Shown: in pieces, positions 3,578-27,604 of the stretch
How positions within the stretch are numbered: the first letter of the stretch is position 1
Layout: each line of letters begins with the position of its first letter
Origin: an uncultured Pseudomonadota bacterium
Lineage (GTDB): Bacteria > Myxococcota_A > UBA796 > CAJQPC01
DNA length: 27,961 bases
Direction: 5' to 3'
Assembly: GCA_937915955.1 (NCBI GenBank)
Contig: CALGIB010000804.1
Span: 1-27,961, forward strand
Notes under the pieces: generated by a model
Database searches by the model: none
Told to the model about the DNA's origin: nothing
The model's input: the letters and a program-made list of their open reading frames with translations, nothing else
Translations under genes and position numbers: made by a program

Positions 3578-3578
3578 C

Positions 3579-5459: not shown

Positions 5460-5541
5460 GGGGTCTCCGGGATCGGGGGTCGTTCGGGTCTAGATGGGTT
5501 GAAGGTGGCCGCGCGATCGACGTCATCGCGTGAACCCTGGC

Positions 5542-7298: not shown

Positions 7299-7363
7299 GA
7301 AGGCTTGGTCACACGGCAGGCCGCCAGGTTCCACGTGCTTTGAGCCCCACTGTGTCCGTGATG

Positions 7364-7400
7364 TTCGATACAGTCGGCATGTAGATTCGAGAGAGACGAA
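7364..7400. promoter_or_regulatory. Two TTCG-N7-CGAA-type boxes in the GHL10/LysR divergent region (candidate LysR operator)
   Basis: TTCGATACAGTCGGC (7364-7378) and TTCGAGAGAGACGAA (7386-7400), 22 bp apart; the second contains T-N11-A. Confidence 0.55.
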
Positions 7401-7402
7401 CG

Positions 7403-8335: not shown

Positions 8336-8385
8336 TACATTTTTTCGGCTCTATCACTGGGACGGTCCCCCAGAACGGAGCCCGC

Positions 8386-8973: not shown

Positions 8974-9041
8974 GGGGCGGGGGCCCCGCAAGGTGACGGT
9001 CCTGCCTTCGAGCTGACACAGACGCTCCATAGAACGTCGCC

Positions 9042-11889: not shown

Positions 11890-11892
11890 GCG

Positions 11893-12762
11893 ATGTTCGG
11901 ACCCACCGCACGAACCGTCCAGGACCAGCTCGTCGAGCGCCGCGTGCGCGTCGGCCTGGGCCTCGTCACCGCCGTCCTCGTGCTGCCCGTGGTGCTCATC
12001 CTGGGGGTGCTCGTCGTCAAGGGCGGGCCCATGATCAGCATGGAGTTCCTGTTCTCGGATCCCACCAACGGGATGACCGAGGGCGGCATCTTCCCGGCCC
12101 TGATCGGCACGGTCTGGCTGGTGGGCTTCGCGCTGCTGTTCAGCGTGCCCGTTGGCATCGCCGCGGCGCTGTACCTGAGCGAGTACGCCCCGGACAACTG
12201 GGTGACCCGCGCCATCAACCTGGCCATCATCAACCTGGCCGGCGTGCCCAGCATCGTGCACGCGCTGTTCGGCCTGGGCGCCTTCGTGCTCTTCGCCGGC
12301 TTCGGCACCAGCATCCTGGCCGCCAGCCTGACCCTGGCCGTGATGACCTTGCCGGTGGTCATCGTCGCCACCCGCGAGTCGCTGCAGGCCGTGCCGATGG
12401 AGTTCCGCGAGGCCTGCTGGTCGATGGGCGCCACGCGCTGGCAGACCATCTGGCGCATCGTGCTGCCCAACAGCATCACCGGCATCCTCACGGGCGTCAT
12501 CCTGGAGGTCAGCCGCACCGCCGGAGAGACGGCGCCCATCATGTTCACGGGCGCGGCCTTCTTCCTGCCGTTCCTGCCCGAGAGCGTGTGGGACCAGACC
12601 ATGGCCATGAGCCTGCACCTGTTCGTGGTCTCCACGCAGGTGCCCGACGTGCCCGAGGCGCTGCCCTACGGCGTGGCCCTGGTGATGATCCTGATGGTCC
12701 TGACCATGAACGCGCTGTCCATCGGCTTCCGCATGTGGCTCCGAGGGAGGCGCAAGTGGTGA
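11893..12762 (+). CDS. pstA: Phosphate ABC transporter permease PstA
   Basis: GGIFPALIGT, YLSEYA, NLAGVPSIVHALFG, RESLQAVP, RTAGETAPI. Confidence 0.96.
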   Translation: MFGPTARTVQDQLVERRVRVGLGLVTAVLVLPVVLILGVLVVKGGPMISMEFLFSDPTNGMTEGGIFPALIGTVWLVGFALLFSVPVGIAAALYLSEYAPDNWVTRAINLAIINLAGVPSIVHALFGLGAFVLFAGFGTSILAASLTLAVMTLPVVIVATRESLQAVPMEFREACWSMGATRWQTIWRIVLPNSITGILTGVILEVSRTAGETAPIMFTGAAFFLPFLPESVWDQTMAMSLHLFVVSTQVPDVPEALPYGVALVMILMVLTMNALSIGFRMWLRGRRKW

Positions 12763-13520
12763 AGCTCTCGGTCCGCGACCTGCGCATCACCTACGGAGAG
12801 GGCCCCTCGGAGAAGGTGGCCCTGTCCGGCGTGAACCTGGACATCCACGAGCACGAGATCTTCGGCATCATCGGGCCCGCGAACAGCGGCAAGACCAGCT
12901 TCCTGCGGGCCATCAACCGCATGGACGAGTTCACCCTGGGCATGGACGTGCGGGGCTCGGTCAAGCTGGACGGCACCGAGGTGCGCGACTGGGCCAACGT
13001 CTACGCCCTCCGCCGCCGCATCGGCGTGGTCTTCCCGCTGCCCGTCGGCCTGCCCATGAGCGTGTACGACAACGTGGCGCTCTCGCCTCGCCTGCGCGGC
13101 GTCCGCAAGCGCTCGGTGCTGGACGAGAAGGTCGAGCAGTGCCTGACGCGCGCGGCGCTCTGGGACGAGGTCAAGGACCGCCTCGGCACGCTGGGCAGCC
13201 TGCTCTCGGGCGGCCAGCAGCAGCGCCTGACCATCGCCCGGGCGCTCTCGCAGGAGCCCGACCTGCTGCTGCTCGATGAGTTCTCCATCGCGGTAGACCC
13301 GGTCACCACCATGCGCATCGAGGACGTCCTGGTCGACCTGAAGCAGGACATGACCATCGTGCTGGTCACCAACCTCGTCCAGCAGGCCCGCCGCCTGGCC
13401 GACCGAACGGCCTTCTTCCTCATGGGCGAGTGCGTCGAGATCGCCGAGACCGAGGAGCTCTTCACCGGCGAGGTGAAGGACCCGCGCACCCGCGACTACG
13501 TGGACGGACGCTTTGGTTGA
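12759..13520 (+). CDS. pstB: Phosphate ABC ATPase PstB, copy 1 (degenerate Q-loop and H-switch)
   Basis: GTG overlaps the pstA stop; GPANSGKT, IGVVFPLP, LSGGQQQRLTIARAL, LLLLDEFSIAVDP, VTNLVQQARR, TRDYVDGRFG. Confidence 0.92.
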   Translation: MKLSVRDLRITYGEGPSEKVALSGVNLDIHEHEIFGIIGPANSGKTSFLRAINRMDEFTLGMDVRGSVKLDGTEVRDWANVYALRRRIGVVFPLPVGLPMSVYDNVALSPRLRGVRKRSVLDEKVEQCLTRAALWDEVKDRLGTLGSLLSGGQQQRLTIARALSQEPDLLLLDEFSIAVDPVTTMRIEDVLVDLKQDMTIVLVTNLVQQARRLADRTAFFLMGECVEIAETEELFTGEVKDPRTRDYVDGRFG

Positions 13521-14289
13521 CGCCACCGACAGCAGCGACGCGATCCGCACGCGCGACCTGAACCTCTGGTACGGGACCTTCCAGGCGCTGCACGACGTCA
13601 CGCTGGACATCCAGACCGGCGTGGTCACCTCGATGATCGGGCCCTCGGGCTGCGGAAAGAGCACGCTGCTGCGCTGCTTCAACCGCATCAACGAGCGCCT
13701 GGACTACGTGCGGACCACGGGCAGCGTCGAGATCCTGGGCCACGACATCCTGGCCCCCGAGGTCGAGATCCTGCAGGTCCGCAAGCGCGTGGGCATGGTC
13801 TTCCAGCGCCCCAACCCGCTGCCCTTCTCCATTCGGGACAACGTGCTCTTCGCGCACAGCCTGCACGCCCCCGACGCCAGCAAGCAGGCCCAGGACGAGC
13901 TGCTCGAGGGCGCCCTGCGCAAGGTGCTGCTCTGGGACGCGGTGAAGGACCGGCTGGACAGCCTGGCCACCAGGCTGTCTCTGGAGGAGCAGCAGAAGCT
14001 CTGCATCGCGCGCTTGCTGCCCGTGAAGCCCAGCGTGCTGCTGATGGACGAGCCCTGCTCCGCCCTGGACCCCGACGGGACCCGCGCCGTCGAGGAGCTG
14101 ATCTGGGAATTGGCCGAGGAGTACAGCATCCTCATCGTCACCCACAACATGGCCCAGGCGCGCCGGGCCAGCGACCGCTGTGTGTTCATGCTGATGGGCA
14201 AGGTCATCGAGCACGGGCCCACCTCCGAGATGTTCGTCACCCCCCGGGACGAGCGCACCGCCGCCTACATCGAGGGTCGCTACGGCTGA
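13513..14289 (+). CDS. pstB: Phosphate ABC ATPase PstB, copy 2 (degenerate signature)
   Basis: GPSGCGKST, GMVFQRPNP, LSLEEQQKLCIAR, LMDEPCSALDP, VTHNMAQARR, TAAYIEGRYG. Confidence 0.93.
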   Translation: MVDATDSSDAIRTRDLNLWYGTFQALHDVTLDIQTGVVTSMIGPSGCGKSTLLRCFNRINERLDYVRTTGSVEILGHDILAPEVEILQVRKRVGMVFQRPNPLPFSIRDNVLFAHSLHAPDASKQAQDELLEGALRKVLLWDAVKDRLDSLATRLSLEEQQKLCIARLLPVKPSVLLMDEPCSALDPDGTRAVEELIWELAEEYSILIVTHNMAQARRASDRCVFMLMGKVIEHGPTSEMFVTPRDERTAAYIEGRYG

Positions 14290-14339
14290 GTCGGCCAGGC
14301 CGGCTCGAGCGACCGCCCACCACCACCGAAGGAACGCTC

Positions 14340-15449
14340 ATGCTCCTCATGGCTTGGATCACCGCTCTGTCCACCGCCCAGGCTGCCGACGAGGCGCCGG
14401 TCGAGACCGGCTACGACAAGGGCTTCTACGCCTCCCAGGGCGAGAACTACCTGATCCGGTTCCAGGGTCGGGTGCAGCCGCGCTTCACCTTCGAGTCCAA
14501 CGGAGACTTCAGCTCCACCCAGGAGCACTTCGAGGTCAGCCGGGCCCGGTTCAAGATGAGCGGCCACGTCTTCGACCCCCGCGTGAAGTACTACCTCCAG
14601 CTCGACGCCGGCAAGGGCGCGGTCACGCTGAAGGACTACTTCGTGGACGCCTACCTCGGCGACAGCGAGGTCTTCGTGCGGGCCGGGCAGGCCAAGATCT
14701 GGGCCAGCCGGCAGCAGATGGCCAGCACAGCGAACCTGCAGATGGTCGAGCGCGCCATCACCGACGAGCACTACGGCTATGGCCGCGACGTCGGCATCGC
14801 CGCCTACCACTCGCTCGGCAAGGAAGGCGGCGTCGAGTGGGTGGTGGGCGTGTACAACGGCACCGGCGACAAGGGCGTGTTCCGCGGCGAGACCACCGTG
14901 GACCTGAGCACCGGCGAGGGGGACGTCGAGGGCAAGTTCAGCAACGTGCCGGCCAAGATGATGCCCAAGGTGGCCGCCACGCTCGGCTGGGCCAACGACG
15001 GCGACGTCATCAAGGAGGCCGACTTCAAGCCGGACGCGGACCTGCGCTTCGGCGTCGGCGGCAGCGTCGTAGCGGCCTTCGACCACGACGGCGGGGACGA
15101 CGGCGCGGTGGTCGCCAACCTGGACTACATGCTCAAGCACCGCGGCCTGACGCAGACCTCGGCGGTCTACGTCGGCGTGGCGCAGAGCGGCGGCAGCTGG
15201 ACGTCGCAGGCCTACGAGAGCCTAGGCTTCCACGCGCAGGTCGGCTACACCCTCGCCGGCAAGGTCCAGCCCGCCCTCCGCTACGCGATGATCCTGCCCT
15301 CCCAGGGCGAGCGCACCAGCGAGGTGGGCGTGGGCGTGAACGGGTACTGGCACCGGGACGGCTGGAAGGTCCAGGCCGACGTGAACCGGCAGCAGACCGG
15401 GGCCGAGGTCGCCTACCTGGGTCGGACGCAGCTGCAGCTCTCGTTCTGA
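14340..15449 (+). CDS. Outer-membrane porin, OprO/OprP (phosphate-selective) family
   Basis: Signal peptide; RFQGRVQPRF, FEVSRARFKMSG, LKDYFVD, VRAGQAK, GRDVG amphipathic strands; C-terminal QLQLSF; position after pst genes. Confidence 0.82.
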   Translation: MLLMAWITALSTAQAADEAPVETGYDKGFYASQGENYLIRFQGRVQPRFTFESNGDFSSTQEHFEVSRARFKMSGHVFDPRVKYYLQLDAGKGAVTLKDYFVDAYLGDSEVFVRAGQAKIWASRQQMASTANLQMVERAITDEHYGYGRDVGIAAYHSLGKEGGVEWVVGVYNGTGDKGVFRGETTVDLSTGEGDVEGKFSNVPAKMMPKVAATLGWANDGDVIKEADFKPDADLRFGVGGSVVAAFDHDGGDDGAVVANLDYMLKHRGLTQTSAVYVGVAQSGGSWTSQAYESLGFHAQVGYTLAGKVQPALRYAMILPSQGERTSEVGVGVNGYWHRDGWKVQADVNRQQTGAEVAYLGRTQLQLSF

Positions 15450-15467
15450 GTGTGCTACGTCGTGGCG

Positions 15468-17864
15468 ATGAGCCGTGACACCAAGCGCCTTCACGTCATC
15501 AGCCGCCACGGCGAGTACAACTTCCAGACCGGCATGATCACCGCGACGCTGCTGCGTCGGGGGGTGCCCATGGACCAGGCCTTCGAGCTGGCCCGCGAGC
15601 TGCGGCGCCGCCTCGAGGGCCGGGAGCGCATCGAGACCGGCGAGCTGGGCGAGCTGCTGCGGGCGCTGGTCCGCGAGCGCCTCGGTGACCTCGTCGACGA
15701 GCCGGCGGCCCAGCCCGAGAGCGCGCCGGTCACGGTCCTCAGCCGCCGAGGCCCGCTGGCCTTCTCCCAGGGCATCTTCCTGCGGCGCATGTCCCACATC
15801 GGCCTGTCCTCGGCTCAGGCCCACCAGGTCCTCGACGAGCTGGTGACCTGGCTGCACGCTCGCCGAAAGCCGACGGTGGAGCGCCAGCACCTGGACCGGC
15901 ACGTCGTCCGGCTGCTGACCCGCATCTGCGGGGTGGCTCCCGCTCGCCGCTACCGCCTCGTGCGCTGGCTGGCCGAGCAGCACGAGCCCGTCGTCATCTT
16001 CATCGCGGGCGCCACCGGCACGGGCAAGTCCACGCTGGCCATGGAGCTGGGCGTGCGCCTGGGCATCCGCATGGTGACCAGCACCGACCTGATCCGCGAG
16101 ACCATGCGGGCCGTGCTCTCGCCGGAGCTGGTGCCGGGCCTGCACGACCACAGCTTCACAGGCATGCTCCAGGGCGGCACGGTGCTGACCGATCCGCGGG
16201 AGCGGGTGCTGGCCGGCTTCCGGCAGCAAGCCCAGCAGGTCAGCGTGGGCATCCGGGCCGTGATCCGCCGAGCCCTGCGCGAGGGCGTGTCCATCATCGT
16301 CGAGGGCACCCACCTGCTACCCCCCTTTGACCAGTACGTGCCCGCCGACGCTCAGGTCCACACCGCCGGCCTGACCCTGGCCGTGCAGGACCCCGCCGAG
16401 CACCTGGCCCGCTTCCCCGAGCGGGACCGGGGGCACCGGTCGGCTCAGCCCTACATGGACTCCTACCAGTCGGTGCGCTGGATCCACGACGACCTGCTGA
16501 CCCTGGCCGAGGACCACGAGGAGGTCGTCGTGCTGGCTCGGGGCGACGAGGACGTGACCGCCGCCGAGGCGCTGACCTTCCTGTCCCAGGCCCTGCCGGT
16601 GGACGGCGAGCCGGTCGAGCCCAGCGCGCCCGAGGCGGCCCCGGAGCGCAGCCGGCGGCTCTACCTGATCCTGGACGGCCTGGGCGACGAGCCCATCCCC
16701 GCCCTGGGCGGGCAGACCCCGCTGCAGGCGGCCTCGACCCCCACGCTGGATGCGCTGGCCAGCTCGGGGGCGCAGGGCGTGGTGGCCCTGGACTGGGGCG
16801 AGGTGCACCCGAACACGGCGGACGCCATGGCCCTGCTGTTGGGCATGGACGTCGGCGTCGGGCAGCTGGGGCGCGGCCTGCTCGAGGCCATGGGCAGCGG
16901 CGTGTCGATCCCGCGGCCGTCGGTGGTCTTCCGAGGCAACCTGGCCACGCGGGAGCCCGGCGGCCTGATCAGCGACCGCCGCGCGGGCCGGATCCGACAG
17001 GCGCCCGAGCTGCTCGAGGGCTTGCGGCGGGTGCAGCTCGAAGGCGGCATCCAGGGCAGCATCCTGCCCAGCCACGAGCACCGGGTCACGGTGGTCCTGC
17101 AGGGCCGGGGGCTCTCCGCCGAGGTCTGCGCCACGGACCCGGGGAACCGGGCGCCGGAGTGGAGGGTGCAGCGGGCTCGCCCCCTGGACGACTCACCCGA
17201 GGCGCTGCGCACCGCGCGGGCCCTCAACCAGATGCTGGATCTGGCCGCCCTGAGGCTGGCCAACCACCCGGTCAACGTGCGCCGGGCCGAGCAGGGGCTG
17301 CCGGTGGCCAACTGCGTCATCACCCGGGGCGCGGCCCACACCGACAGCCTGGGCGAGGTCCCCCCGCCGCGTCACGAGGCCGCCGTGGTCTCGGGCTGCC
17401 GCACGGTGCTGGGGGCTGCGCGCCTCTGCGGCATGCACGTGGTGACGGACGCGCGCATGACGGGCAGCGTCGACACGGACCTGGAGGCCAAGTTCCAGGC
17501 CGTCGAGACGCTGCTGGCCAGCTGGAGCACGGTCGTCCTGCACCTCAAGGGGGCCGACGTCGCGGCCCACGACCGCCGGCCCGAGCTCAAGCGTGACTTC
17601 CTGAGCCGGGCGGACCAGGCCCTCGGTCGCTTCCTCGAGCGGCTCCGGCGGAGCGGTCGCGACCTGACCGTGCTGGTCACCGCGGACCACGGCACCTCCT
17701 CGCTCACCGGCGTCCACCTCTACGAGCCGGCGCCGGTGCTGCTGGGTCAGTGGGAGGGGCCCGACTCGCCCGGCGGCGCGGTCTTCGACGAGCGCAGCGC
17801 GCAGGACGGCGAGCTCGGACGCATCGACGCTGCGCGGCTGCTGGAGCTCCTGGCCGAGCGCTGA
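15468..17864 (+). CDS. Fusion: two ATP-cone-like repeats + archaeal-type 2-phosphoglycerate kinase + ApgM-type cofactor-independent phosphoglycerate mutase-like domain (798 aa)
   Basis: Kinase: EPVVIFIAGATGTGKSTLAMELGVRLGIRMVTSTDLIRETMR...LVPGLHDHSF...RRALREGVSIIVEGTHLLP. Mutase: LILDGLGDEP...TPLQAASTPTLDALA, HLKGADVAAHD, VTADHGT, GVH..EPAPVLL. Confidence 0.85.
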   Translation: MSRDTKRLHVISRHGEYNFQTGMITATLLRRGVPMDQAFELARELRRRLEGRERIETGELGELLRALVRERLGDLVDEPAAQPESAPVTVLSRRGPLAFSQGIFLRRMSHIGLSSAQAHQVLDELVTWLHARRKPTVERQHLDRHVVRLLTRICGVAPARRYRLVRWLAEQHEPVVIFIAGATGTGKSTLAMELGVRLGIRMVTSTDLIRETMRAVLSPELVPGLHDHSFTGMLQGGTVLTDPRERVLAGFRQQAQQVSVGIRAVIRRALREGVSIIVEGTHLLPPFDQYVPADAQVHTAGLTLAVQDPAEHLARFPERDRGHRSAQPYMDSYQSVRWIHDDLLTLAEDHEEVVVLARGDEDVTAAEALTFLSQALPVDGEPVEPSAPEAAPERSRRLYLILDGLGDEPIPALGGQTPLQAASTPTLDALASSGAQGVVALDWGEVHPNTADAMALLLGMDVGVGQLGRGLLEAMGSGVSIPRPSVVFRGNLATREPGGLISDRRAGRIRQAPELLEGLRRVQLEGGIQGSILPSHEHRVTVVLQGRGLSAEVCATDPGNRAPEWRVQRARPLDDSPEALRTARALNQMLDLAALRLANHPVNVRRAEQGLPVANCVITRGAAHTDSLGEVPPPRHEAAVVSGCRTVLGAARLCGMHVVTDARMTGSVDTDLEAKFQAVETLLASWSTVVLHLKGADVAAHDRRPELKRDFLSRADQALGRFLERLRRSGRDLTVLVTADHGTSSLTGVHLYEPAPVLLGQWEGPDSPGGAVFDERSAQDGELGRIDAARLLELLAER

Positions 17865-17866
17865 GC

Positions 17867-19024
17867 TCAGCCCTTGGGCGTGACCCGGCGCCTCAGCTGC
17901 GCCTCGTCGTAGACGACCTCGACGCGGTCCAGCTCGGACTCGCTGTAGTCGCCCATGCCGAAGCCAGCGACCTCGACCAGGTCGTTCAGGCTCTGCTTGC
18001 GCCGGGCCTCGGTGACCTCGTCGTCGACGTCCTCGATGTCCTCGTCGACCTGCAGCGCCTCGGCCAACAGGGCATCGCAGCCCTTCAGCTGGCCCGTCAC
18101 GTTGCGCAGCACGGACTCCCACCACCAGGGCTGGACCGCCGCCGGGGGCCTCTGGAAGTCCTCCTTGCTGATCCGGTACAGCCACACGGGGCTGGTCGCC
18201 ACGCAGCTGGCGGTGCGGGGGCCCGGCTCGACCAGCGCGTTGCAGCCGAACTGGTCGCCCGCCTTCAGCGTGATCAGGCGCTTGGCGCCGCCGCGCACGC
18301 AGCGCAGCACGTCGACGCTGCCGGACGCGACGATGTACATGGCGTCCAGGCGCTCGCCGGAGTCGCCCTCCATGACCACGACCTCGCCCTCGCGGACCCC
18401 CACGGGCTGGAACACGGTGGTCAGGGCCAGGACGACCTCGGGCGGCGCCTCGGCCAGCCCGGGCTGCATGCGCAGCAGGGGAGGGAGCGCCGGGGGCGGA
18501 TCGGCGGGCAACCCGGGCACCAGGGCGCGCCACATGCGCAGCAGGCCCGAGACCTCCTTGCGGCCGGGCGCCTTCGCGTCGCTGTCGGCCACGCGAGCCA
18601 GCCAGGCCGTGGCGCGCCGGACGCGCCGGACCGTGCCGATGGACGCCTGTTGCAGCAGGACCCCGTAGACGCTGTTGCGGTCCTGGCGCAGGCGGCGCAG
18701 ATGCAGGGTGTCCATGACGAGCAGCGTCGAGGCCTCCTTGGCGCGGACGTTCGCGGACCGGACGCTCCCGGACTGGAACGCGCCGGCCTCACCGACCAGT
18801 TCACCCGCGTAGATCGCGCCGAGGATCTCGCCTGCAAGCTCCACTTCCAGACAGCCCTTGTGCACGATCGCGAGACGATCCGCGGGCTCGCCGCGGCCCC
18901 AGACGAGCTCGCCCGGCTTCAGGCGCTGGACCCTCCAGGCGGCCGCTGAGAACTGGAGGTCCGCGGGATCGGCAGCTTTCAGGGTGGTTGAGGCCATCAG
19001 GGCTTTGAGCAGGCGTTCGTTCAT
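17867..19024 (-). CDS. Tandem cyclic nucleotide-binding domain protein, no effector domain (385 aa)
   Basis: CNB-A: LKPGELVWGRGEPADRLAIVHKG...GELVGEAGAF...VRSANVRA; CNB-B: VREGEVVVMEGD..DAMYIVASGSVDV...GDQFGCNALVEPGPRTASC; acidic tail. Confidence 0.88.
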   Translation of the reverse strand: MNERLLKALMASTTLKAADPADLQFSAAAWRVQRLKPGELVWGRGEPADRLAIVHKGCLEVELAGEILGAIYAGELVGEAGAFQSGSVRSANVRAKEASTLLVMDTLHLRRLRQDRNSVYGVLLQQASIGTVRRVRRATAWLARVADSDAKAPGRKEVSGLLRMWRALVPGLPADPPPALPPLLRMQPGLAEAPPEVVLALTTVFQPVGVREGEVVVMEGDSGERLDAMYIVASGSVDVLRCVRGGAKRLITLKAGDQFGCNALVEPGPRTASCVATSPVWLYRISKEDFQRPPAAVQPWWWESVLRNVTGQLKGCDALLAEALQVDEDIEDVDDEVTEARRKQSLNDLVEVAGFGMGDYSESELDRVEVVYDEAQLRRRVTPKG

Positions 19025-19070
19025 GCCCGGAGTATGGCATTCCCGGCGTCCAAACTCCGGTGTGGGCGCG

Positions 19071-19079
19071 TGATAGACT
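19071..19079 (+). promoter_or_regulatory. Candidate extended -10 element (TG-A-TAGACT) for the cyclase operon
   Basis: Matches TGnTAnnnT, 28 nt upstream of ATG 19108 in the divergent intergenic region; motif match only. Confidence 0.35.
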
Positions 19080-19107
19080 GCCGCCGCCATCACCTGAGCA
19101 GACGACC

Positions 19108-22100
19108 ATGAATCAGCAGCCTCCGGGGGGCCAGAAGACTCTGGCCAGCTACCTCCCGGCCCTCCACCTGGAGCGCCTCGGAGGGACCCAGGACGGTCCC
19201 AGCGTGGAGGGTCTGCACGGCGCCGTCCTGCTCGTCGACGTGCGGGGCTTCACCAGGCTGACCGCCCGCTACGCCGAGAAGGGGGCCCGAGGCGCAGAGC
19301 TGCTGTCCGAGGTGCTGAACCTCGGCTTCGGCGCCATCATCGACGTCATCGCCGAGCACGGCGGCGACGTGCTGAGCTTCGCGGGCGACGCCGTCCTGGC
19401 CGTCTGGCCCTGCACACCGGATCGGCTCGAACAGGCCGTGGTCCTGGCGGCCGAGGCCGGGCTGCGCGTGCACGAGGTGCAGGGGCACCCCGACGAGCCG
19501 CTGCGGCTGCGCTCCAGCGTGGGGGTAGGCCCCCTGCAGCTCTTCCACGTGGGCGGCGCCGCGGGTCGCTGGATGCTGCTGGCCACGGGCGAGCCCCTGG
19601 CCCAGGTGGGCCAGGCCGACAAGGTCTGCGAGTCCGGTGAGCTGGTGCTCTCGCTCGAGGCCTGGGCCCGGGTCCAGGACCGCTGCGCTGGCGAGCTGAG
19701 GGGGACCGCGGTCCGACTCAGCGCCATCAAGAAGCCCGTCCCGGCGCCCGGCGCGGGGCCGCTCCCGACCACCGACGTGGACCTCGAGCCCTACGTGCCC
19801 GAGGTGGTCTGCGGCCGCCGCGGCCGGGCCGAGTACCTGGCCGAGTTCCGTCCGCGCATGACGATCCTGTTCGTCAATCTGCCGGACATCGCCCCCGAGG
19901 GCGCCGGCGCGCTCGAGCGCATCCAGCAGGCCGCGCTGCTCATGCAGGAGGAGCTGGCCCGCTTCGAGGGCGCGGTCTACCAGTTCCTGACCGACGACAA
20001 GGGCAGCACCCTGCTCGGCGCCTTCGGCCTTCCCGGCATGGCCCACGAGGACGACGCGGTCCGGGGCTGCCTGGCCGCCCAGAGCATCCGCGAGCGCCTG
20101 ACCGAGGCCGGCATGGCCTCGGCCGTCGGCGTCGCCACCGGTCGGCTGTTCTCGGGCTCCTACGGCAACGATCGGCGCCGCAGCTTCGCCCTGGTCGGCA
20201 CCACGATGAACCTGGCCGCGCGGCTGATGCAGGCCAGCGAGGGCGACGGCCTGCTCGTCTGCCCCACCACGCGCGAGGCCGCCGGCACCCGCTTCGACTT
20301 CGAGGAGCTCGAGCCCGTCACGGTCAAGGGCATCGACGAGCCAGTGCAGGTCTACCGACCCCACGGCCTGCACGGGCGGCAGCACGGATCGGGCGACACG
20401 CTGATCGGTCGCGCGGCTGAGCGGGCCTACCTGGACACGGTGATGGACGGCAGCGGCCCGCGCATCACGGTGTTCGAGGGCGAGGCCGGCATCGGCAAGA
20501 GCCAGCTGCTCCGCTACGCCGTGGGCCTGGCCGAGGCCCAGGACGTCACGGTGCTCGAGGGCTCGGCGGACTCGATCGAGACCGACAGCTCCTGGTTCAT
20601 GTGGCGCCCCGTCCTGGCCGAGCTGCTGGAGCTCGACGAGGGCCAGGAGCACGCCCAGGCGCGCCTGATGGAGCTCATCGGCGGCGACCCGACCCGCGAG
20701 AGGTGGGCGCCGGTCTTCGAGGACGTGCTCGAGCTGGGCCTGCAGGCCAACGAGATCTCCGCGGAGATGTCCGGACCGGCTCGCGCTGACGCCGTGCGGA
20801 CCCTGCTGATCGAGGTCCTGCGCAACTGCGGCAAGGAGCGTCGCTTGATGCTGCGCGTCGAGGACGCCCACTGGCTGGACTCGGCCAGCTGGGGCGGACT
20901 GCTGCACGTGGCCCGCGCCGTGGACACCCTGCGCATCCTGGTCTCGACCCGCCCGCCGTCCGACCCCGTGCCGCCCGAGCACCTGGCCCTGGTGGAGATC
21001 GAGGACTGCGAGCGCCGGGTCCTGGGCGCCCTGTCCGCCGCCGAGGCCGAGCAGCTGGTCTGCTACCGGCTCGAGGTCGACGCGCTGCCGCCCAGCGTCG
21101 CCGCCCTGCTGGCCCGGCAGGCCGAGGGCCACCCGCTCTTCACCGAGGAGCTCGCCTGGTCGCTGGTCGAGCAGGGCGCCCTCGAGATCCGGGGCCGTCA
21201 GGCCGTGCTGACCATGGGCGCGGACGAGCTGGCCGCTCAGTCCTTCCCCGACAGCGTCCAGGGGGTCATCACCAGCCGCATCGACCGGCTGCCGCCGGAC
21301 ACCCAGCTGATCCTCAAGGTGGCCTCGGTCATCGGTCGGGTCTTCCAGATGCACATCCTGTCGGCCGTGAACCCGGTGACCCAGGACGGCGGCCGCCTGC
21401 AGGCCGAGGCCGAGGACCTGGTCCGCCACGACCTGACCCTCATCGAGCGGCCCGCCCCCGACCCCGCCTGGATCTTCAAGCACGCGCTGATCCAGGACGT
21501 GGCCTACAACCTGCTGGCCTTCCGGCAGCGGCACAAGCTGCACAAGGCCGTGGCCGAGTGGTACGAGTCGCAGTTCGAGCACAACCTGGCCAGCTACTAC
21601 CCCGTGCTGGCCCACCACTACGCGCTGGCCGAGGACCAGCCCAAGACGCTCGAGTACCTGGACCTGGCGGGCACGCGAGCCCTGCGCAACGGCGCCAGCG
21701 GCGAGGCCGTCAGCTTCTTCCTCCGCGCCCTCGATCTGGGCCAGGACAAGGAGGCCCTGGCCAGCGCCGAGACCCGGCTGCGGCAGGCCCGCTGGTGGCG
21801 CTCGCTGGGGCTGGCCTACTACGGCCTGGGCCGCCGGCTCGAGGCCCGCGATGCCTTCCTCCGGACGATGGAGATCGCCGGCTACCCCTTCGCCAGCAGC
21901 CTGCCGGGTCAGCTCTTCCAGCTGTCGCGCGAGTACGTCTACCAGGCCCTGCTGCTGGCGGCGCCCAAGCTGCTGCTCGAGGGCGACGAGACGCGCCGGC
22001 TGCTGGCCGCCGAGGCCGCGGACGCCGCGCAGTACGTCTCGACGACCTACTACTTCGACAAGGAGAACCTGCCGATGTTCGTGGCAGCGCTCTCCTGCGC

Positions 22101-23148
22101 CACCCTGTCGACCCGCTCGGGCAACACCCGCGAGGCCGCCGTCGGCCTGTCCTACGTCGGCGTGCTCGTGGGGCTCTTCAACATCGCGCCGCTGCTTGAC
22201 GCCTACTTCGACCGCGGGCTCGCGGCGGCCCAGGCCGTCGGTGACCCCTGGGCGGTGGCCCGCCACTGGCAGCTCCGGGCCATGCAGTACGCCGGCCGAG
22301 GCATCTGGGTCGAGAAGGAGCTCGACGACTCGATCGAGTTCTTCCGCCGCACGGGCGACCGGCACGAGTACGAGATCTCGCTGACCGTGAAGCTGCTGAT
22401 CCGCAGCTACCAGGGCCGCTACGGCGAGTGGCTGCAGATGACCGGGCGGCTCTCCGACAGCGCCACCGGGCACAGCGCGCAGCACCTGATGTGGGCCAAC
22501 AGCAAGATGGCCGAGCTGCTCCTCCTCATGGGCGAGGCCGCCGCCGGACACCCCTACGCGGACGAGGTGCTGCGCATCCACGAGACCGATCCCGAGCCGC
22601 CCACCTGGGCCTCGGGCGTGATGATGAAGGGCTGCTGCCAGTGGCAGGAGGGCGACATCGACGCCGGCGTGGCGACCCTGGAGCCCGGGCTCGACCTGCT
22701 CCTCGAGGCGCCCACGAACACCCACGGCGGCCTGACGGCCTACCAGGCCTCGGGTGAGCTGGTGATGCAGTACCTGGAGCAAAGCATGGGCACGCCGAAG
22801 CAGGCCCACGCGCTGAGCCTGGCGGGTCGCTTCACCAAGATGTTCTTCATCTTCAGCCTGGTCTTCCCCTTCTCCAAGGGGGCCCGCCAGGCCTGGCAGG
22901 CGCGCCTGGCCATCGCCACCGGCAAGCAGGCCAAGGGCCGCAAGCTGGCGGCCAAGGCCATCGCCTGGGGCAGCGACAAGGGCCTGCCCCTGACCGAGGG
23001 GCTGGGGCACTACCACTTGGGGCTCAGTCATCCCCCAGGTTCGCCGGAACGAAAGGCTGCGCTTCAGCAGGCGCTGTCGGTGTTCGAGGGTATCGGAGCG
23101 CGCTATTACGCAGGCTTCGTCAGCGGAGCCCTCGGAGGAGATGGCTGA
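19108..23148 (+). CDS. Class III adenylate/guanylate cyclase (two cyclase domains, soluble-AC/ADCY10-like) + STAND/AAA ATPase + TPR-like helical region (1346 aa)
   Basis: C1: VLLVDVRGFTRLT...GAELLSEVLN...GGDVLSFAGDAVLAVW; C2: DDKGSTLLGAFGLP...GVATG...MNLAARLM; Walker A GEAGIGKS; Walker B VEDAHWLD; AEGHPLFTEEL, RIDRL, FKHALIQDVAY winged-helix motifs. Confidence 0.92.
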   Translation: MNQQPPGGQKTLASYLPALHLERLGGTQDGPSVEGLHGAVLLVDVRGFTRLTARYAEKGARGAELLSEVLNLGFGAIIDVIAEHGGDVLSFAGDAVLAVWPCTPDRLEQAVVLAAEAGLRVHEVQGHPDEPLRLRSSVGVGPLQLFHVGGAAGRWMLLATGEPLAQVGQADKVCESGELVLSLEAWARVQDRCAGELRGTAVRLSAIKKPVPAPGAGPLPTTDVDLEPYVPEVVCGRRGRAEYLAEFRPRMTILFVNLPDIAPEGAGALERIQQAALLMQEELARFEGAVYQFLTDDKGSTLLGAFGLPGMAHEDDAVRGCLAAQSIRERLTEAGMASAVGVATGRLFSGSYGNDRRRSFALVGTTMNLAARLMQASEGDGLLVCPTTREAAGTRFDFEELEPVTVKGIDEPVQVYRPHGLHGRQHGSGDTLIGRAAERAYLDTVMDGSGPRITVFEGEAGIGKSQLLRYAVGLAEAQDVTVLEGSADSIETDSSWFMWRPVLAELLELDEGQEHAQARLMELIGGDPTRERWAPVFEDVLELGLQANEISAEMSGPARADAVRTLLIEVLRNCGKERRLMLRVEDAHWLDSASWGGLLHVARAVDTLRILVSTRPPSDPVPPEHLALVEIEDCERRVLGALSAAEAEQLVCYRLEVDALPPSVAALLARQAEGHPLFTEELAWSLVEQGALEIRGRQAVLTMGADELAAQSFPDSVQGVITSRIDRLPPDTQLILKVASVIGRVFQMHILSAVNPVTQDGGRLQAEAEDLVRHDLTLIERPAPDPAWIFKHALIQDVAYNLLAFRQRHKLHKAVAEWYESQFEHNLASYYPVLAHHYALAEDQPKTLEYLDLAGTRALRNGASGEAVSFFLRALDLGQDKEALASAETRLRQARWWRSLGLAYYGLGRRLEARDAFLRTMEIAGYPFASSLPGQLFQLSREYVYQALLLAAPKLLLEGDETRRLLAAEAADAAQYVSTTYYFDKENLPMFVAALSCATLSTRSGNTREAAVGLSYVGVLVGLFNIAPLLDAYFDRGLAAAQAVGDPWAVARHWQLRAMQYAGRGIWVEKELDDSIEFFRRTGDRHEYEISLTVKLLIRSYQGRYGEWLQMTGRLSDSATGHSAQHLMWANSKMAELLLLMGEAAAGHPYADEVLRIHETDPEPPTWASGVMMKGCCQWQEGDIDAGVATLEPGLDLLLEAPTNTHGGLTAYQASGELVMQYLEQSMGTPKQAHALSLAGRFTKMFFIFSLVFPFSKGARQAWQARLAIATGKQAKGRKLAAKAIAWGSDKGLPLTEGLGHYHLGLSHPPGSPERKAALQQALSVFEGIGARYYAGFVSGALGGDG

Positions 23149-24115
23149 GCTCAGCTTCTGGCACCCCGTGCTGCTCGACAAGCAGCTGGGGGACAAGCCC
23201 GAACCCATCCGGGTCCTGGACCAGGACCTCGTGCTGTTCCGTGGGGAGCAGGGCATCGGCTGCCTGCCGGATCGCTGCCCTCATCGGGGCGAGCGCCTCT
23301 CGCTGGGGCTCGTCCGCGGGGGCGACATCGCCTGCCCCTACCACGGGTGGACCTGGTCGCCCCAGGGCAAGGGGCGCTGCCCGGGGGACAGCACGTTCTC
23401 GCCGACCATCGCCCACTTCGAGGTCGCCACGGCCCACGGCGCCATCTGGATCCGCGAGCCCGGCGGCCGGGGCCAGCTGCCCAGCTTCGAGGTCTCCGGC
23501 TTCCGCCCGCTGACGGTCTTCAGGACGCGCCTGCCCGGCTCGCTCGAGCGCGTGCTGGACAACTTCAGCGAGTCCGAGCACACCCCCGAGGTCCACCTGA
23601 TGGGCTTCGATCCGCGCAAGATGGACCAGGTCCAGGTCACGGTTCGGACCGACGAACACAGCGTGCACGTGGTCAACCGCGGCCCCCAGCGCCGGGCCAT
23701 GAGGCTGCTGCGCCTGGGCGTCGGCGTGCCGCCCAAGGCCGACTACGTCATCGAGTGGACCACCCGCTTCCAGCCCGTGCACGCCCAGTTCGACCACTAC
23801 TGGCTGCCCCCGGGCGGCGACCAGCCCTACGACAAGCGCGTGCGCGCCTGGGTCTACTTCGTGCCCGTCAGCGAGAAGCAGACCGACCTGTTCAGCTTCG
23901 TGTTCGTCAACGAGGGCCCCGCCTGGGAGCGCCTGGGTGACGCGCTCCATGCCCGCTACGCCCGCTGGGACATCGAGCAGGACCGCCCGCTGCTCGAGGG
24001 CCTGGCGCCCGAGCTCGACGACCAGCAGTCGACCTTTGGCTGGAAGAGTCGCTTCGACGAGGCCATCGACGCCAACCGCGAGCGCCTGAACCTGCTGTAC
24101 CGAGGCACGACGTGA
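23141..24115 (+). CDS. Rieske non-heme iron oxygenase (single-subunit VanA/KshA-like architecture)
   Basis: CPHRG and CPYHGW Rieske ligands; DNFSESEHTPEVH mononuclear-iron motif; late WDIEQD acidic ligand; GGAGGAG SD; start overlaps the cyclase stop. Confidence 0.92.
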   Translation: MAELSFWHPVLLDKQLGDKPEPIRVLDQDLVLFRGEQGIGCLPDRCPHRGERLSLGLVRGGDIACPYHGWTWSPQGKGRCPGDSTFSPTIAHFEVATAHGAIWIREPGGRGQLPSFEVSGFRPLTVFRTRLPGSLERVLDNFSESEHTPEVHLMGFDPRKMDQVQVTVRTDEHSVHVVNRGPQRRAMRLLRLGVGVPPKADYVIEWTTRFQPVHAQFDHYWLPPGGDQPYDKRVRAWVYFVPVSEKQTDLFSFVFVNEGPAWERLGDALHARYARWDIEQDRPLLEGLAPELDDQQSTFGWKSRFDEAIDANRERLNLLYRGTT

Positions 24116-24993
24116 ACCGCCTGACCCAGCTCCGGGGCCTCGCCGGCCTGCTCATCCCTGGCCTCGACGCCCACGAGGCCCGGACGCTGGGCTGGTACCA
24201 CGTCTACGGCGAGATGTTCCGCCTGCTCTGCGAGGACTCGGGCTTCCTGGACTTCGGCTGGTCCGAGGACCCGGACACGTCGGATCTGCTGGGCGCCCAG
24301 CACGAGATGGTGCGCCAGGTGACCGCCTCGCTGCAGGCGGGGCCCGAGGGGCCGTGGCTGGACGTGGGCTGCGGCGAGGGCGGCCCAGCCTGTCTGATGG
24401 CCCAGGAGCGGGGTGTGCAGGTCACCGGCCTGAACATCAACGCCTCGCAGGTCGCCATGTGCATCGAGCGGGCCCAGCGCCTGGGCGTACAGGTGGACTT
24501 CGTAGAGGGCAACGCCCAGGAGATGCCTCTGGATTCCGGAACATTCTCAGGGGTCTACACCATCGAGTCGCCGCTGCACTACCCGGACAAGCCGGCCTTT
24601 CTGGCCGAGGTCACCCGGGTGCTGAAGCCTGGCGGCCGCTTCGCGCTCTGCGACATCGTGCGCGTGCCGCGGGACATCTCGCTGGGGCAGGCCATGGGTG
24701 TGGAGCTGGGGCGCTGGCTGTACGCCTGCCCGCCGCTCTGGTCGGCCGCGGACTGGGCCGAGGGCATGCGCTCCCTCGGCCTGGAGGACGTCGAGATCAT
24801 GGACTGCACCCGGCAGACGCTGGGCCTGACGCCGGCCTGGATCCGCCAGCTGGACAGCGTGAAGGGCGAGATCCGCAAGCGCTACCCGCCGGGGGTGTAC
24901 CAGGGCGCGCGGCGCATCCTGGTCGAGCTCTCCGCTCGGCTGGAGGGCCTGCCCATCGGCTACACCCTGGTCACGGCTCGGAAGCCGGCGTGA
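24112..24993 (+). CDS. Class I SAM-dependent methyltransferase (sterol/tocopherol/natural-product type)
   Basis: FLDFGW, WLDVGCGEGGPA, VTGLNINASQV, GNAQEMP, IESPLHYPDK..FL.EVTRVLKPGGRF; GTGA overlap with the Rieske gene. Confidence 0.9.
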   Translation: MNRLTQLRGLAGLLIPGLDAHEARTLGWYHVYGEMFRLLCEDSGFLDFGWSEDPDTSDLLGAQHEMVRQVTASLQAGPEGPWLDVGCGEGGPACLMAQERGVQVTGLNINASQVAMCIERAQRLGVQVDFVEGNAQEMPLDSGTFSGVYTIESPLHYPDKPAFLAEVTRVLKPGGRFALCDIVRVPRDISLGQAMGVELGRWLYACPPLWSAADWAEGMRSLGLEDVEIMDCTRQTLGLTPAWIRQLDSVKGEIRKRYPPGVYQGARRILVELSARLEGLPIGYTLVTARKPA

Positions 24994-26039
24994 GCGTCGG
25001 GATCCTGGGGGCGACGGGGCACACGGGGCGGCTGCTCGCCCGAGCCCTTCACGAGCTGGGTCAGCCCCTCGTCCTGTTCGGCCGAAGCCAGGAGAAGCTG
25101 AACGATCTTCGTGAGATGGGTGAGACGATCGTGGGCTCCGCGCTGGACGTGGAGAGCCTGCGTCCCGTCTTCCGGCGCTGCCCGCTCGTCATCAACTGCG
25201 CGGGGCCCTACACCGAGCTGGGCTGGCCCGCCGTTCAGCTGGCCATGGAGTACCGGGTCGACCTCTGGGATCTCACGGGCGAGCAGCCCTTCCAGCTCCG
25301 CTGCCTGGAGCTGGACGCCCGCCTGCGCATGTTCGACGTCGCCATCGCCAACGCCATGGGCCTCGAGGTCCTGGTCAGCGACTGCGGGGCCGCGCTGCTC
25401 TCCGAGGAGCTCCGCGGGCTGCACGGCGAGGTCGAGCGCGTCGACATCGTGAACAAGGTCAGGGACTTCCAGTCCAGCAAGGGCAGCTTTGAGTCGGTGC
25501 TGAACATCCTGGGCCGGGACACCTTCGCCTGGCGTGACGGCGGCCTGGTCCCCGCTCGCATGGGCAAGCCCTGGCGCCGAGAGGGTGGCCGTCACCTGGT
25601 CTGGGGACCGGGGGTCGACATCCTCACCGTCGCCCGGTCCACCGGCGCCCGCCAGGTCGAGGTCTGGTTCGACATGCCCGGCTGGGTGGCCATGGGCGCC
25701 CGCGCTGGCTCGCGCAGCAACAAGGCCGTCTTCGGCTCCAGGCTGGGCCCCGCGCTCCGTAAGCTCGGCAAGCGGGCCCCGCTGGATCCCCAGGTCGACG
25801 CCGACGGTGGACCTTGGGAGATCCAGGTCACCGTCCACGGCGGCGGTCACAGCCTGTCGCGGACCTGGGTCGGGCGGGACCCCTACGGCAGCACCGCCGC
25901 GATCACCGCGTGGTGCGCCATCGAGCGGCTGGCCGCGGGCAACCGCGTGCGGCGGGGCGGACTGCTGTCCCCCAGCCAGGTCGTCAGCCCCGCCCGCTTC
26001 TTCGAACACCTCCATCCCCTCATCCGGGAGCAAGCATGA
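24990..26039 (+). CDS. Saccharopine dehydrogenase-like NAD(P)-dependent oxidoreductase (trans-acting enoyl reductase-like family)
   Basis: GILGATGHTG Rossmann motif, GRSQEKL, VINCAGPYTELGWP, YWD-like 'LWDLTGE', DPYGSTA; GTGA overlap. Confidence 0.85.
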   Translation: MSVGILGATGHTGRLLARALHELGQPLVLFGRSQEKLNDLREMGETIVGSALDVESLRPVFRRCPLVINCAGPYTELGWPAVQLAMEYRVDLWDLTGEQPFQLRCLELDARLRMFDVAIANAMGLEVLVSDCGAALLSEELRGLHGEVERVDIVNKVRDFQSSKGSFESVLNILGRDTFAWRDGGLVPARMGKPWRREGGRHLVWGPGVDILTVARSTGARQVEVWFDMPGWVAMGARAGSRSNKAVFGSRLGPALRKLGKRAPLDPQVDADGGPWEIQVTVHGGGHSLSRTWVGRDPYGSTAAITAWCAIERLAAGNRVRRGGLLSPSQVVSPARFFEHLHPLIREQA

Positions 26040-27604
26040 GCACCCCCAAGCGCGCCATCGTGGTCGGCTCGGGCATCGCCGGCATGTCCGCCGCCGCCCA
26101 CCTCGCCGAGGCCGGCGTCGTCGTCACCGTCCTCGAGAAGCAGCCCTACCTGGGCGGTCGCCTGTCCACGCCGACGCAGGTGGACCTCGAGCACAACGGC
26201 AAGACCTGGACCTTCCCCGTCGAGCACGGCATCCACGGCTACTGGCGGCAGTACCGCAACCTGAAGGCCCTGCTCGTCAAGCACGGCCTGGACCACCGCC
26301 TGATCGACAGCAAGAGCCAGGAGATCGTGATCTGGCTGGACAACGACCGCCCTCGCTTCGTCGAAGTTGGCGACATCGTTCGTGACTCCAAGCTGCCCGA
26401 TCCCTTCTGCTTCCTCGAGCTGCTGCGCCAACGGGAGTTCCTGAAGCTCAGCCTCATGGCGGGCCCCTTGCAGATGGCGCAGGTCGGGCGCGACATGGCC
26501 CACGCCTTCGCCTTCGACCCCAGCCGGGACATGGACGAGTACGAGCAGTACAGCGTCAGCCAGCTCATTGGCGGCTGGCCGCCCTACCTGAAGAAGTTCT
26601 TCAAGGCGATGACGCACTCGAGCTTCTTCCTGGAGGTGGAGGACACCAGCCTGGGCGCCTTCCTGACCAGCCTGCAGTTCTACACGATCAAGGACAAGCG
26701 GGACATCGGCTTCGAGTACATGGACGGCAGCACCGAGGAGTGCGTGCTGCGCCCCCTGGCCGACGTCGTCGAGTCCAACGGCGGCCGCGTGCTGACGAAC
26801 AACCTGGTCGAGGAGGTGCTCTTCGAGGGCGGCCGCGCGGTCGGCGTGCGCGCCCAGGACGCCAACGGCCGCAGCCGCGTGCTCAAGGCGGACGCCTGCG
26901 TGATGGCCGTGGATCCCCCTGGCATGGGGGTGCTGCGGCGGCACGAGGACCTGGCCCGGATCACGCCCGGCATGCACGTGCCCGAGGGCGTGCACAGCCA
27001 CACCGTGCGGCTGTGGTTCGGCCGGCAGCCCAGCCCGGACCGGGCCACCAACGGCATGGCCGCGGGGCCGGACATCGACAACTACTTCTGGCTGTCCACG
27101 ATCCAGAGGCCCTACGTCGAGTGGGCGCAGGCCACCGGCGGCTCCTGCATCGAGGCCCACCAGTACGGCAAGCGCGCCACCTGGGCCGCCGAACAGTCGG
27201 ACCAGGTGGTCATCGACGCCGCGGTGAAGACGGTCGAGGCTTGCTGGCCGGGCGTCCGCGGCAGCCTGGTCAAGGCCCACCTCAAGCGCAACCCGCCCAC
27301 CCACGTCGGCTTCAACCCTGGCACCTACGCTCTGCTCCCCAAGGTCCGCACCCGCTGCGCGAACCTCTCGCTCTGCGGAGACTGGATCGAGGCCCAGTAC
27401 CCGGTGCTCTACCTGGAGCGCGGCGCCAGCACCGGGCTCGAGGCGGCCAGGGCCGTGGCTCCGGAGCTCGGCGTCGACGTGGCCGGCATGGACGACGTCA
27501 TCCCGCCCTTCCCCAGCAGCAAGGGCTTCGACCGCTACCAGGCCGTCGCCCGGGGTTTGCGCGAGCTGGGGCTGCTTCCGAACCTCGGGAAGCGCCCTCG
27601 CTGA
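26036..27604 (+). CDS. FAD-dependent oxidoreductase, phytoene desaturase / CrtU / HpnE-like family (522 aa)
   Basis: VVGSGIAGMSAA, LEKQPYLGGR, VEHGIHGYWRQYRNL, NLSLCGDW...LERGASTGLEAA; ATGA overlap. Confidence 0.85.
   Translation: MSTPKRAIVVGSGIAGMSAAAHLAEAGVVVTVLEKQPYLGGRLSTPTQVDLEHNGKTWTFPVEHGIHGYWRQYRNLKALLVKHGLDHRLIDSKSQEIVIWLDNDRPRFVEVGDIVRDSKLPDPFCFLELLRQREFLKLSLMAGPLQMAQVGRDMAHAFAFDPSRDMDEYEQYSVSQLIGGWPPYLKKFFKAMTHSSFFLEVEDTSLGAFLTSLQFYTIKDKRDIGFEYMDGSTEECVLRPLADVVESNGGRVLTNNLVEEVLFEGGRAVGVRAQDANGRSRVLKADACVMAVDPPGMGVLRRHEDLARITPGMHVPEGVHSHTVRLWFGRQPSPDRATNGMAAGPDIDNYFWLSTIQRPYVEWAQATGGSCIEAHQYGKRATWAAEQSDQVVIDAAVKTVEACWPGVRGSLVKAHLKRNPPTHVGFNPGTYALLPKVRTRCANLSLCGDWIEAQYPVLYLERGASTGLEAARAVAPELGVDVAGMDDVIPPFPSSKGFDRYQAVARGLRELGLLPNLGKRPR

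Follow-up and report, generated by a model that had tools for sequence, protein, structure and literature searches.

A soluble-adenylyl-cyclase-type gene at the head of a conserved Myxococcota operon: a candidate cAMP switch for isoprenoid-lipid tailoring

A cyclase gene, a tandem-CNB gene and an operon of enzymes

The window analysed here, the whole 27,961-nucleotide contig CALGIB010000804.1 of a metagenome-assembled genome (G000, with the window as its contig C804; 5.2 Mb in 1044 contigs, 74% complete), carries a compact block in which a gene for a soluble-adenylyl-cyclase (sAC)-type protein heads an operon of enzyme genes and diverges from a gene for a protein with two tandem cyclic-nucleotide-binding (CNB) domains (Table 1). 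The enzymes are a Rieske oxygenase, a methyltransferase, an NAD(P) reductase and a flavoenzyme, AmOx1. Domain searches of the window's proteins confirmed that every gene and domain listed in the original prediction, which had been made from the letters of the sequence alone, is present and intact, and the spacings given there are exact: successive genes of the operon overlap by 8, 4, 4 and 4 nucleotides, the divergent gap measures 83 nucleotides and the next gene downstream follows after 31. The cyclase/Rieske junction, which holds the 8-nucleotide overlap, reads ATGGCTGA and has a GGAGGAG Shine-Dalgarno sequence 5' of the Rieske start, and the next three junctions are GTGA, GTGA and ATGA. Scans of the window for sigma-70 promoters and terminators gave no match and are uninformative at its G+C content of about 71%.

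The product of the operon's first gene resembles human sAC (ADCY10) along its whole length, which bears out its original description as a soluble-AC-like STAND cyclase. Residues 27-421 match the catalytic core of ADCY10 across both domains (E 3e-35), and the two proteins share a C1-C2 pseudo-heterodimer with metal-binding aspartates in C1 and a Lys/Asn/Arg set in C2, as well as the P-loop STAND module and TPR-like region that come after it. D44, D94, K298, N368 and R372 are invariant in seven orthologues, as are the Walker A (GEAGIGKS) and Walker B (VEDAHWLD) motifs. In an AlphaFold model of residues 432-1346 (pLDDT 90) the C-terminal TPR-like part consists of helices only. The best Swiss-Prot fold match of this model is the C-terminal part of ADCY10 (E 2e-24), followed by MalT, Rv0890c and PknK, and its best match in the PDB is the STAND-TPR structure of PH0952 (6mfv), with Apaf-1 and MalT also matching; a PDB sequence search with the STAND/TPR part returned no match. 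Judged by its sequence, the cyclase is of the sAC type with catalytic and P-loop residues intact, and its product would be expected to be cyclic AMP (cAMP). Two features set it apart from ADCY10, namely that the residues of the bicarbonate site are not kept and that its gene heads an enzyme operon and is paired with CNB proteins. Serine and glycine align with K95 and R176 of human ADCY10, which we take to be bicarbonate-binding residues, and bicarbonate regulation of the cyclase is therefore not expected.

A MalT-type STAND ATPase joined to a helical-repeat sensor is also found in MalT and PH0952 and, with a class III cyclase as effector, in Mycobacterium tuberculosis Rv0386, Rv1358 and Rv2488c. 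These mycobacterial proteins have a cyclase-ATPase-TPR-LuxR architecture with one cyclase domain and a C-terminal DNA-binding domain, whereas the window's cyclase has two cyclase domains and no helix-turn-helix. Full-length sAC-like homologues (32-37% identity) occur commonly across the phylum.

The adjacency of a cyclase gene and a CNB-domain gene is shared with Pycsar, and the locus could accordingly be read as an anti-phage system of the Pycsar or Avs kind, in which a STAND sensor and cyclase would produce a cyclic nucleotide for a CNB effector. PADLOC returned matches at the level of domains only, for the cyclase of Pycsar and the CNB portion of its effectors, and an Avs4 structure is a weak fold match. 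Unlike Pycsar, however, the block encodes no toxic effector, in that domain searches found no killing domain of the TIR, transmembrane or nuclease kind; a lysine of the purine rather than the pyrimidine type occupies the specificity position; and the genes form a tight operon with metabolic enzymes among housekeeping or Pho-type neighbours rather than in a defence island. We regard a defensive role as very improbable.

Table 1. Features of the block and of the gene downstream of it, in window coordinates
Feature	Position	Strand	Size	Remarks
Tandem-CNB protein	17867-19024	(-)	385 aa	PF00027 x2, E 3e-31; no other domain
CNB-A	about 18683-18928	(-)		within tandem-CNB protein
CNB-B	about 18149-18397	(-)		within tandem-CNB protein
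Divergent intergenic region	19025-19107		83 nt	presumed promoter region of both transcription units
sAC-type protein (cyclase-STAND-TPR)	19108-23148	(+)	1346 aa	first gene of the operon
Cyclase domain C1	19186-19704	(+)		metal-binding Asp44 and Asp94; aligns with human ADCY10 30-206
Cyclase domain C2	19759-20370	(+)		Lys298 (purine-specifying), Asn368, Arg372; aligns with ADCY10 257-465; PF00211
STAND (MalT/Apaf-type) NTPase module	20401-21507	(+)		PF13191 (AAA_16); Walker A GEAGIGKS, Walker B VEDAHWLD
All-helical TPR-like sensor region	21520-23145	(+)	about 540 aa	AlphaFold model; weak TPR_12 match
Rieske non-haem-iron oxygenase, alpha3 type (VanA/NdmA/DdmC-like)	23141-24115	(+)		PF00355 and PF19112 (VanA_C)
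Class I SAM methyltransferase	24112-24993	(+)		best models are lipid methyltransferases
NAD(P) oxidoreductase, Sacchrp_dh fold, SCCPDH/trans-acting enoyl-reductase-like	24990-26039	(+)		domain and fold matches
FAD enzyme AmOx1 (Amino_oxidase), HpnE/phytoene-desaturase-like	26036-27604	(+)		full-length family matches
5'-nucleotidase lipoprotein, N-terminal fragment ending at contig end	27636-27961	(+)		LLAC lipobox

Conservation of the block across three clades

The gene order CNB (on the minus strand), cyclase, Rieske, methyltransferase, reductase and AmOx1 was found in six further independent contigs, and the syntenic loci comprise L001-L003 (85% identical, from three samples), L004, L027/L028, L029/L030 and L031. 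The cyclases group into three clades, A (window, L001), B (L004, L008, L027) and C (L029, L031), and the block is present in all of them (window and L001-L003; L004, L027 and in part L008; L029-L031) with junctions that are tight or overlapping throughout, the cyclase-to-Rieske junction being an overlap or a gap of 4-6 nucleotides in every instance. The upstream flank is 2PGK-apgM with a pst/porin set in clade A as against MoaC in clades B and C, and the downstream flanks all differ. Because cyclases of different clades are only 54-58% identical and the flanking genes differ in this way, the block itself is the conserved unit, and the claim that the cyclase, tandem-CNB and enzyme genes form a syntenic unit is borne out by its recurrence in three clades. 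The pairing of CNB, cyclase and enzyme genes is beyond chance, since CNB genes (about 22, with 31 CNB domains) and cyclase genes (about 12) are few in the 5.2 Mb genome and the same order is met in those six other contigs. It is also specific to this orthologue group, as 12 other sAC-like homologues at 32-37% identity, in other genomes, have no such CNB gene or enzymes adjoining.

Conservation extends to the tandem-CNB protein and to the gap between the divergent genes. In an alignment of six orthologues CNB-B is invariant, its PRTAS (RTA phosphate-binding) motif included, and an invariant cysteine replaces the glutamate of its phosphate-binding cassette; the corresponding motif of CNB-A is RSA in clades A and C and HS, with histidine for arginine, in clade B. 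The inter-domain linker and a C-terminal motif are conserved as well. Domain searches found neither a DNA-binding nor an enzymatic output domain in this protein, and a complex prediction for it with the reductase scored 0.00, which carries no weight either way. In having two tandem CNB domains and no such output it resembles the regulatory subunits of protein kinase A (PKA) and Myxococcus xanthus CbpB, which is described as having two cAMP-binding domains (Kimura et al. 2005, PMID 15727824, as cited in PMC10313047). It differs from these proteins in that no dimerisation/docking or inhibitor segment was recognised and in the glutamate-to-cysteine exchange of CNB-B. In a rough alignment of the divergent gaps (window, L001, L004, L027, L029 and L031, spanning the three clades) two short stretches recur, GAGTAT beside the CNB start and CGTGGTA in mid-gap, and these may be shared promoter or operator elements. 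Two further CNB genes of the window, at 2595-3077 (-) and 3074-3679 (-), encode single-CNB proteins of 160 and 201 amino acids in tandem with a 4-nucleotide overlap and are unrelated to the module.

A second flavoenzyme gene, AmOx2, belongs to the same picture. In clades B and C it lies directly 3' of AmOx1 with a 4-nucleotide overlap, and in clade A (L001) it lies downstream on the opposite strand, adjoining genes for a 366-residue CNB protein and a TPR protein. The window's own genome holds AmOx2 and this third CNB protein in the same order on contigs C234 and C93. The region in question (L001:16371-20972, corresponding to contigs C234, C93 and C57 of the window's genome) encodes the TPR protein, the 366-residue protein with its C-terminal CNB domain, AmOx2 and a 270-residue hypothetical protein specific to Myxococcota; the N-terminal half of the 366-residue protein is faintly PP2C-like, by a language-model score of 0.89 only. 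The view of the locus as a self-contained circuit thus stands in part: cyclase, CNB and enzyme genes are together in the window, but the genes for a second flavoenzyme and another CNB protein come only after the end of the contig. In a genome of the same genus (G102, clade B; L008:4700-12500, contig G102:C59) the CNB, cyclase, reductase and AmOx2 genes are kept, and such a naturally reduced version may help to tell for which of the enzymes the cyclase is needed.

The clade A module is situated between genes of phosphate-starvation type, namely pst/PhoU, porin O/P and 2PGK-apgM genes (window 5200-17864; L001:1-4721), on one side and the 5'-nucleotidase lipoprotein gene on the other, and looks as if it had been inserted into a Pho-type neighbourhood. 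The nucleotidase, complete in L001, is a UshA-type protein of 600 amino acids with Metallophos and 5_nucleotid_C domains. A nucleotidase-family gene had been predicted as the block's downstream neighbour and is indeed there, but it is not conserved with the block, being absent from the clade B and C loci and found only in the closest relatives (clade A). As an exported lipoprotein confined to one clade, it is not counted in the module.

Scans of genome (species) and metagenome contigs with patterns taken from the AmOx1 alignment returned only one type of locus, that of genome G167, so the cassette is either rare or diverged beyond these patterns. The G167 contig (L024, CAZFLE010000086.1, G167:C86, 30,813 bases) is titled 'uncultured Enterobacterales'; it was placed in the window's family and its genes match Myxococcota, and the label is probably wrong. 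DNA of the window's locus is present in aquatic and seawater metagenomes (DNA runs), no RNA run was listed for the cyclase-Rieske junction, and its named homologues are from Polyangium, Sandaracinus, Archangium and 'Myxococcota bacterium'.

The enzymes and their probable substrate

The translated Rieske protein contains CPH...CPYH and EH-x4-H motifs and matches NdmA, SxtT and DdmC in the PDB, and no Rieske reductase or ferredoxin partner was found in the window or in related loci. Its identification as the sterol C-4 demethylase SdmA was rejected, as the match covers only the Rieske domain and scores 50 bits where the cut-off is 600. Rieske homologues further removed, from Polyangium and Sandaracinus (about 40% identity), were likewise set aside as orthologous contexts, their genes adjoining an FMO-like gene and not a cyclase gene. 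The best-scoring models of the methyltransferase are Mtf2 (5e-24) and phthiotriol methyltransferase (1e-21), with CMAS also matching. The reductase model (pLDDT 93) is nearest in fold to SCCPDH (E 2e-19) and to the mycobacterial trans-acting enoyl reductase Rv2953 (TM-score 0.78), and a PDB sequence search with this protein gave no match. The adjacency of a methyltransferase gene of the Rv2952 type and a reductase gene of the Rv2953 fold recalls the Rv2952/Rv2953 pair of phthiocerol dimycocerosate (PDIM) biosynthesis. Unlike that pair, however, the genes here encode proteins of only about 20% identity to the mycobacterial enzymes, have no polyketide synthase nearby and are joined by flavoenzymes and a Rieske oxygenase.

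AmOx1 matches HpnE (3.5e-25) and phytoene_desat (3e-21), both over its full length, and its nearest solved structure is plant phytoene desaturase (PDS; 5mog). It had been called CrtU-like, a label that is not supported: no CrtU model matched, the locus has no carotenoid genes, and the best models are HpnE, PDS and ZDS. AmOx2 is a member of the CrtI/CrtISO (carotenoid-isomerase) family. For both flavoenzymes the isoprenoid desaturases and isomerases match over the full length, whereas amine oxidases match in the FAD-binding N-terminus only. The likeness to HpnE, phytoene desaturase and CrtI/CrtISO has its limits, in that all scores are far below the equivalog cut-offs and the locus has no carotenoid or hopanoid synthase. 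A paralogue of AmOx1 on contig C1017 of the window's genome has uninformative neighbours.

In five genomes from other families, homologues of AmOx2 at about 60% identity come after a DUF455-like di-iron gene, and four of these genomes have futalosine genes close by (UbiX-like, MqnE, MqnA/C, amidohydrolase, UbiA and a UbiE-type methyltransferase). Loci with AmOx2 homologues in other Myxococcota families include L033:1-12000, where a 514-residue gene precedes the AmOx2 homologue, L032:4500-9600 and L052-L056, and most of them place these genes inside futalosine-pathway menaquinone clusters. AmOx2 homologues and the DUF455-like genes are candidates for a quinone-tailoring step, for example saturation or hydroxylation of the prenyl tail; the prenyl reductases behind quinone tail saturation are still to be found (2026 quinone survey, PMC13386864). 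In the block locus itself no linkage to mqn or UbiA genes was seen, and the mqn genes of the window's genome are on contig C627.

CNB domains are also joined directly to enzymes of this pathway. In two clade B contigs from different samples (L004, L027) the operon encodes a methyltransferase-CNB-ADC-like fusion of 766-772 amino acids, whose ADC-like domain matches PF06314 (1e-14) with a Schiff-base lysine motif, GREvyGFPK, that aligns with GRE(I/L)WGFPKK of 3c8w and 3bgt. The CNB-ADC architecture (PF00027 with PF06314) constitutes a family of its own with dozens of clusters. In Archangium (L073, 5790-9816) a CNB-ADC gene has a geranylgeranyl-reductase-like gene on one side and an AmOx gene on the other, with overlapping junctions, in L074 (7001-9900) such a gene precedes an AmOx gene, and in G344 it is flanked by an AmOx gene and by a gene for a reductase of the same fold, again beside a geranylgeranyl-reductase-like gene; the AmOx proteins of these loci are 33-41% identical to AmOx1 of the window. 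The loci of this family, in which CNB-ADC genes accompany HpnE/PDS-like flavoenzymes and in some cases SCCPDH-like genes, include L012:5356-10811. The family is expanded in the window's genome, where some eight additional CNB-ADC genes are present, a number of them arranged in tandem (contigs C10, C171, C336, C803, C938 and C1035). Neither the 270-residue hypothetical protein nor the N-terminus of the 366-residue CNB protein matched the ADC profile in hhalign comparisons, and the clade A locus is therefore taken to be without an ADC-like gene.

Taken together, the enzyme families and folds, the futalosine and UbiA genes beside AmOx2 homologues and the geranylgeranyl-reductase-like neighbour of CNB-ADC genes point to an isoprenoid-lipid substrate. 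As the locus has no scaffold synthase, we infer that the enzymes tailor an existing isoprenoid lipid, with menaquinone as a candidate. A hydrophobic substrate, as originally predicted, is on this sequence-based evidence probable.

Direction of control and its meaning

Our preferred reading of the block, to which we assign a probability of about 0.5, is that of a dedicated sAC-type cAMP switch for isoprenoid-lipid tailoring in an uncultured Myxococcota lineage known from marine metagenomes, in which both the direction of control and the class of substrate are deduced from gene content and context. In this model the sAC-type cyclase would be co-transcribed and translationally coupled with the enzymes, and its TPR/STAND part would read a cue that turns on cAMP synthesis. 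The cAMP would be bound by the CNB modules of the pathway, that is, by the tandem-CNB protein in all clades and by the CNB domain fused to methyltransferase and ADC-like domains in clade B, and these cAMP-bound modules would then gate the enzymes post-translationally. The enzymes, in turn, may act on a polyisoprenoid lipid that the cell already contains, of which menaquinone or its prenyl chain is a possible instance, through desaturation or saturation, hydroxylation, methylation and reduction.

That a cyclic nucleotide would act on the enzymes is suggested by CNB domains being fused to, or encoded beside, pathway enzymes in several lineages, and this pattern favours cyclic-nucleotide action on the enzymes over action of a metabolite on the sensor. 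The original prediction ran the other way: a hydrophobic metabolite made, modified or inactivated by the enzymes would be sensed by the TPR/STAND part, and the cyclic nucleotide would be read by the tandem-CNB protein. In a feedback circuit of this kind the metabolite would control the cyclase, and the tandem-CNB protein would relay the signal to targets encoded elsewhere. STAND ATPases that carry TPR sensors are gated by ligands, as is MalT, whose fold is shared here; a sensor might plausibly be co-translated with the enzymes that produce its ligand; and a tandem-CNB protein lacking an output domain would suit such a relay. The enzyme-fused CNB domain and the CNB-ADC/flavoenzyme operons that have no adjacent cyclase speak instead for cyclic-nucleotide input into the enzymes rather than output from them. 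We consider this feedback circuit rather unlikely, and it is compatible with the preferred cAMP switch as an added loop.

A precedent for the proposed mode of control is Pat, the mycobacterial CNB-GNAT acetyltransferase, in which cAMP controls catalysis allosterically through a fused CNB domain. The CNB domains of the block match the Pat model at the domain level, and the two systems share the fusion of a CNB domain to an enzyme. They differ in the enzyme, consisting here of an ADC-like domain with or without a methyltransferase, in its placement within flavoenzyme operons and in the presence of the cyclase gene in the same operon.

Several observations weigh against the cAMP-switch reading. 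All full instances of the block lie within one family-level lineage, and shared ancestry contributes to their synteny. In G167, a member of the same family, a locus with the Rieske, AmOx1, methyltransferase, reductase and ADC-like genes and more flavoenzymes, AmOx2 among them, is without a cyclase or CNB gene over a distance of 10 kb, and no CNB domain can be detected in its ADC-like protein; the G102 locus, conversely, lacks the Rieske, methyltransferase and AmOx1 genes. The tandem-CNB gene is kept also in clade B, which has the methyltransferase-fused CNB domain. As to the substrate, the fold of the reductase is nearly as close to carboxyaminopropylagmatine dehydrogenase, a polyamine enzyme (TM-score 0.75), known ADC-superfamily enzymes act on small keto acids, and the link to menaquinone comes from the neighbours of AmOx2 homologues in other families and not from the block locus.

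The first of these points would be accounted for if cyclase and enzymes had no functional coupling, and a general-purpose cyclase/CNB pair merely lay upstream of an unrelated metabolic operon and was kept there by descent in a small lineage; enzymes without the cyclase in G167 and a cyclase with a reduced enzyme set in G102 agree with this. Yet the block has persisted through divergence down to 54% identity and through at least one move in which its flanks were entirely replaced, the cyclase and Rieske genes are closely joined in every instance, and the methyltransferase-CNB fusion is encoded inside the same operon, all of which makes mere adjacency decidedly unlikely. The points on substrate would fit the same regulatory logic applied to a small amine or amino-acid-derived metabolite, with keto acids or imines, Schiff-base chemistry of the ADC-like domain and an opine- or polyamine-type reductase. 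Amine and amino-acid oxidases are among the members of PF01593, the lysine motif (GRE.yGFPK) is preserved in the ADC-like domain, which also matches MppR weakly, and the methyltransferase also matches a sarcosine/dimethylglycine N-methyltransferase model, beside the near fold match of the reductase just mentioned. The full-length matches of the flavoenzymes, however, are to isoprenoid enzymes, and the homologues' neighbours are UbiA/mqn and geranylgeranyl-reductase-like genes, and we judge an amine substrate to be unlikely.

Literature searches on the domain combinations gave no published description of this arrangement, in agreement with the original impression that it is not a described system. 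In bacteria cAMP is known chiefly for its global effect on transcription through CRP; to our knowledge, very few enzymes, Pat among them, are documented as being under direct control of cAMP, and what the STAND/TPR half of sAC-family proteins does is still poorly understood, even in mammals. We propose, tentatively and as possible rather than probable, that this sAC orthologue serves as the sensor in a cAMP switch reserved for the pathway, which would act post-translationally and remodel the cell's pool of isoprenoid quinones or lipids, and that it is part of a wider, undescribed class of cyclic-nucleotide-gated lipid tailoring in Myxococcota, represented by CNB-ADC genes with HpnE/PDS-like flavoenzymes. 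These CNB-ADC and flavoenzyme pairs carry the idea beyond the present lineage, and the CrtI-like and di-iron genes of futalosine clusters offer candidates for steps of quinone tailoring. If true, the block would be a compact and transplantable case of local second-messenger control of metabolism, in which one operon encodes its own cyclase, receptor and target enzymes, and would provide a functional context for the STAND/TPR half of the sAC family.

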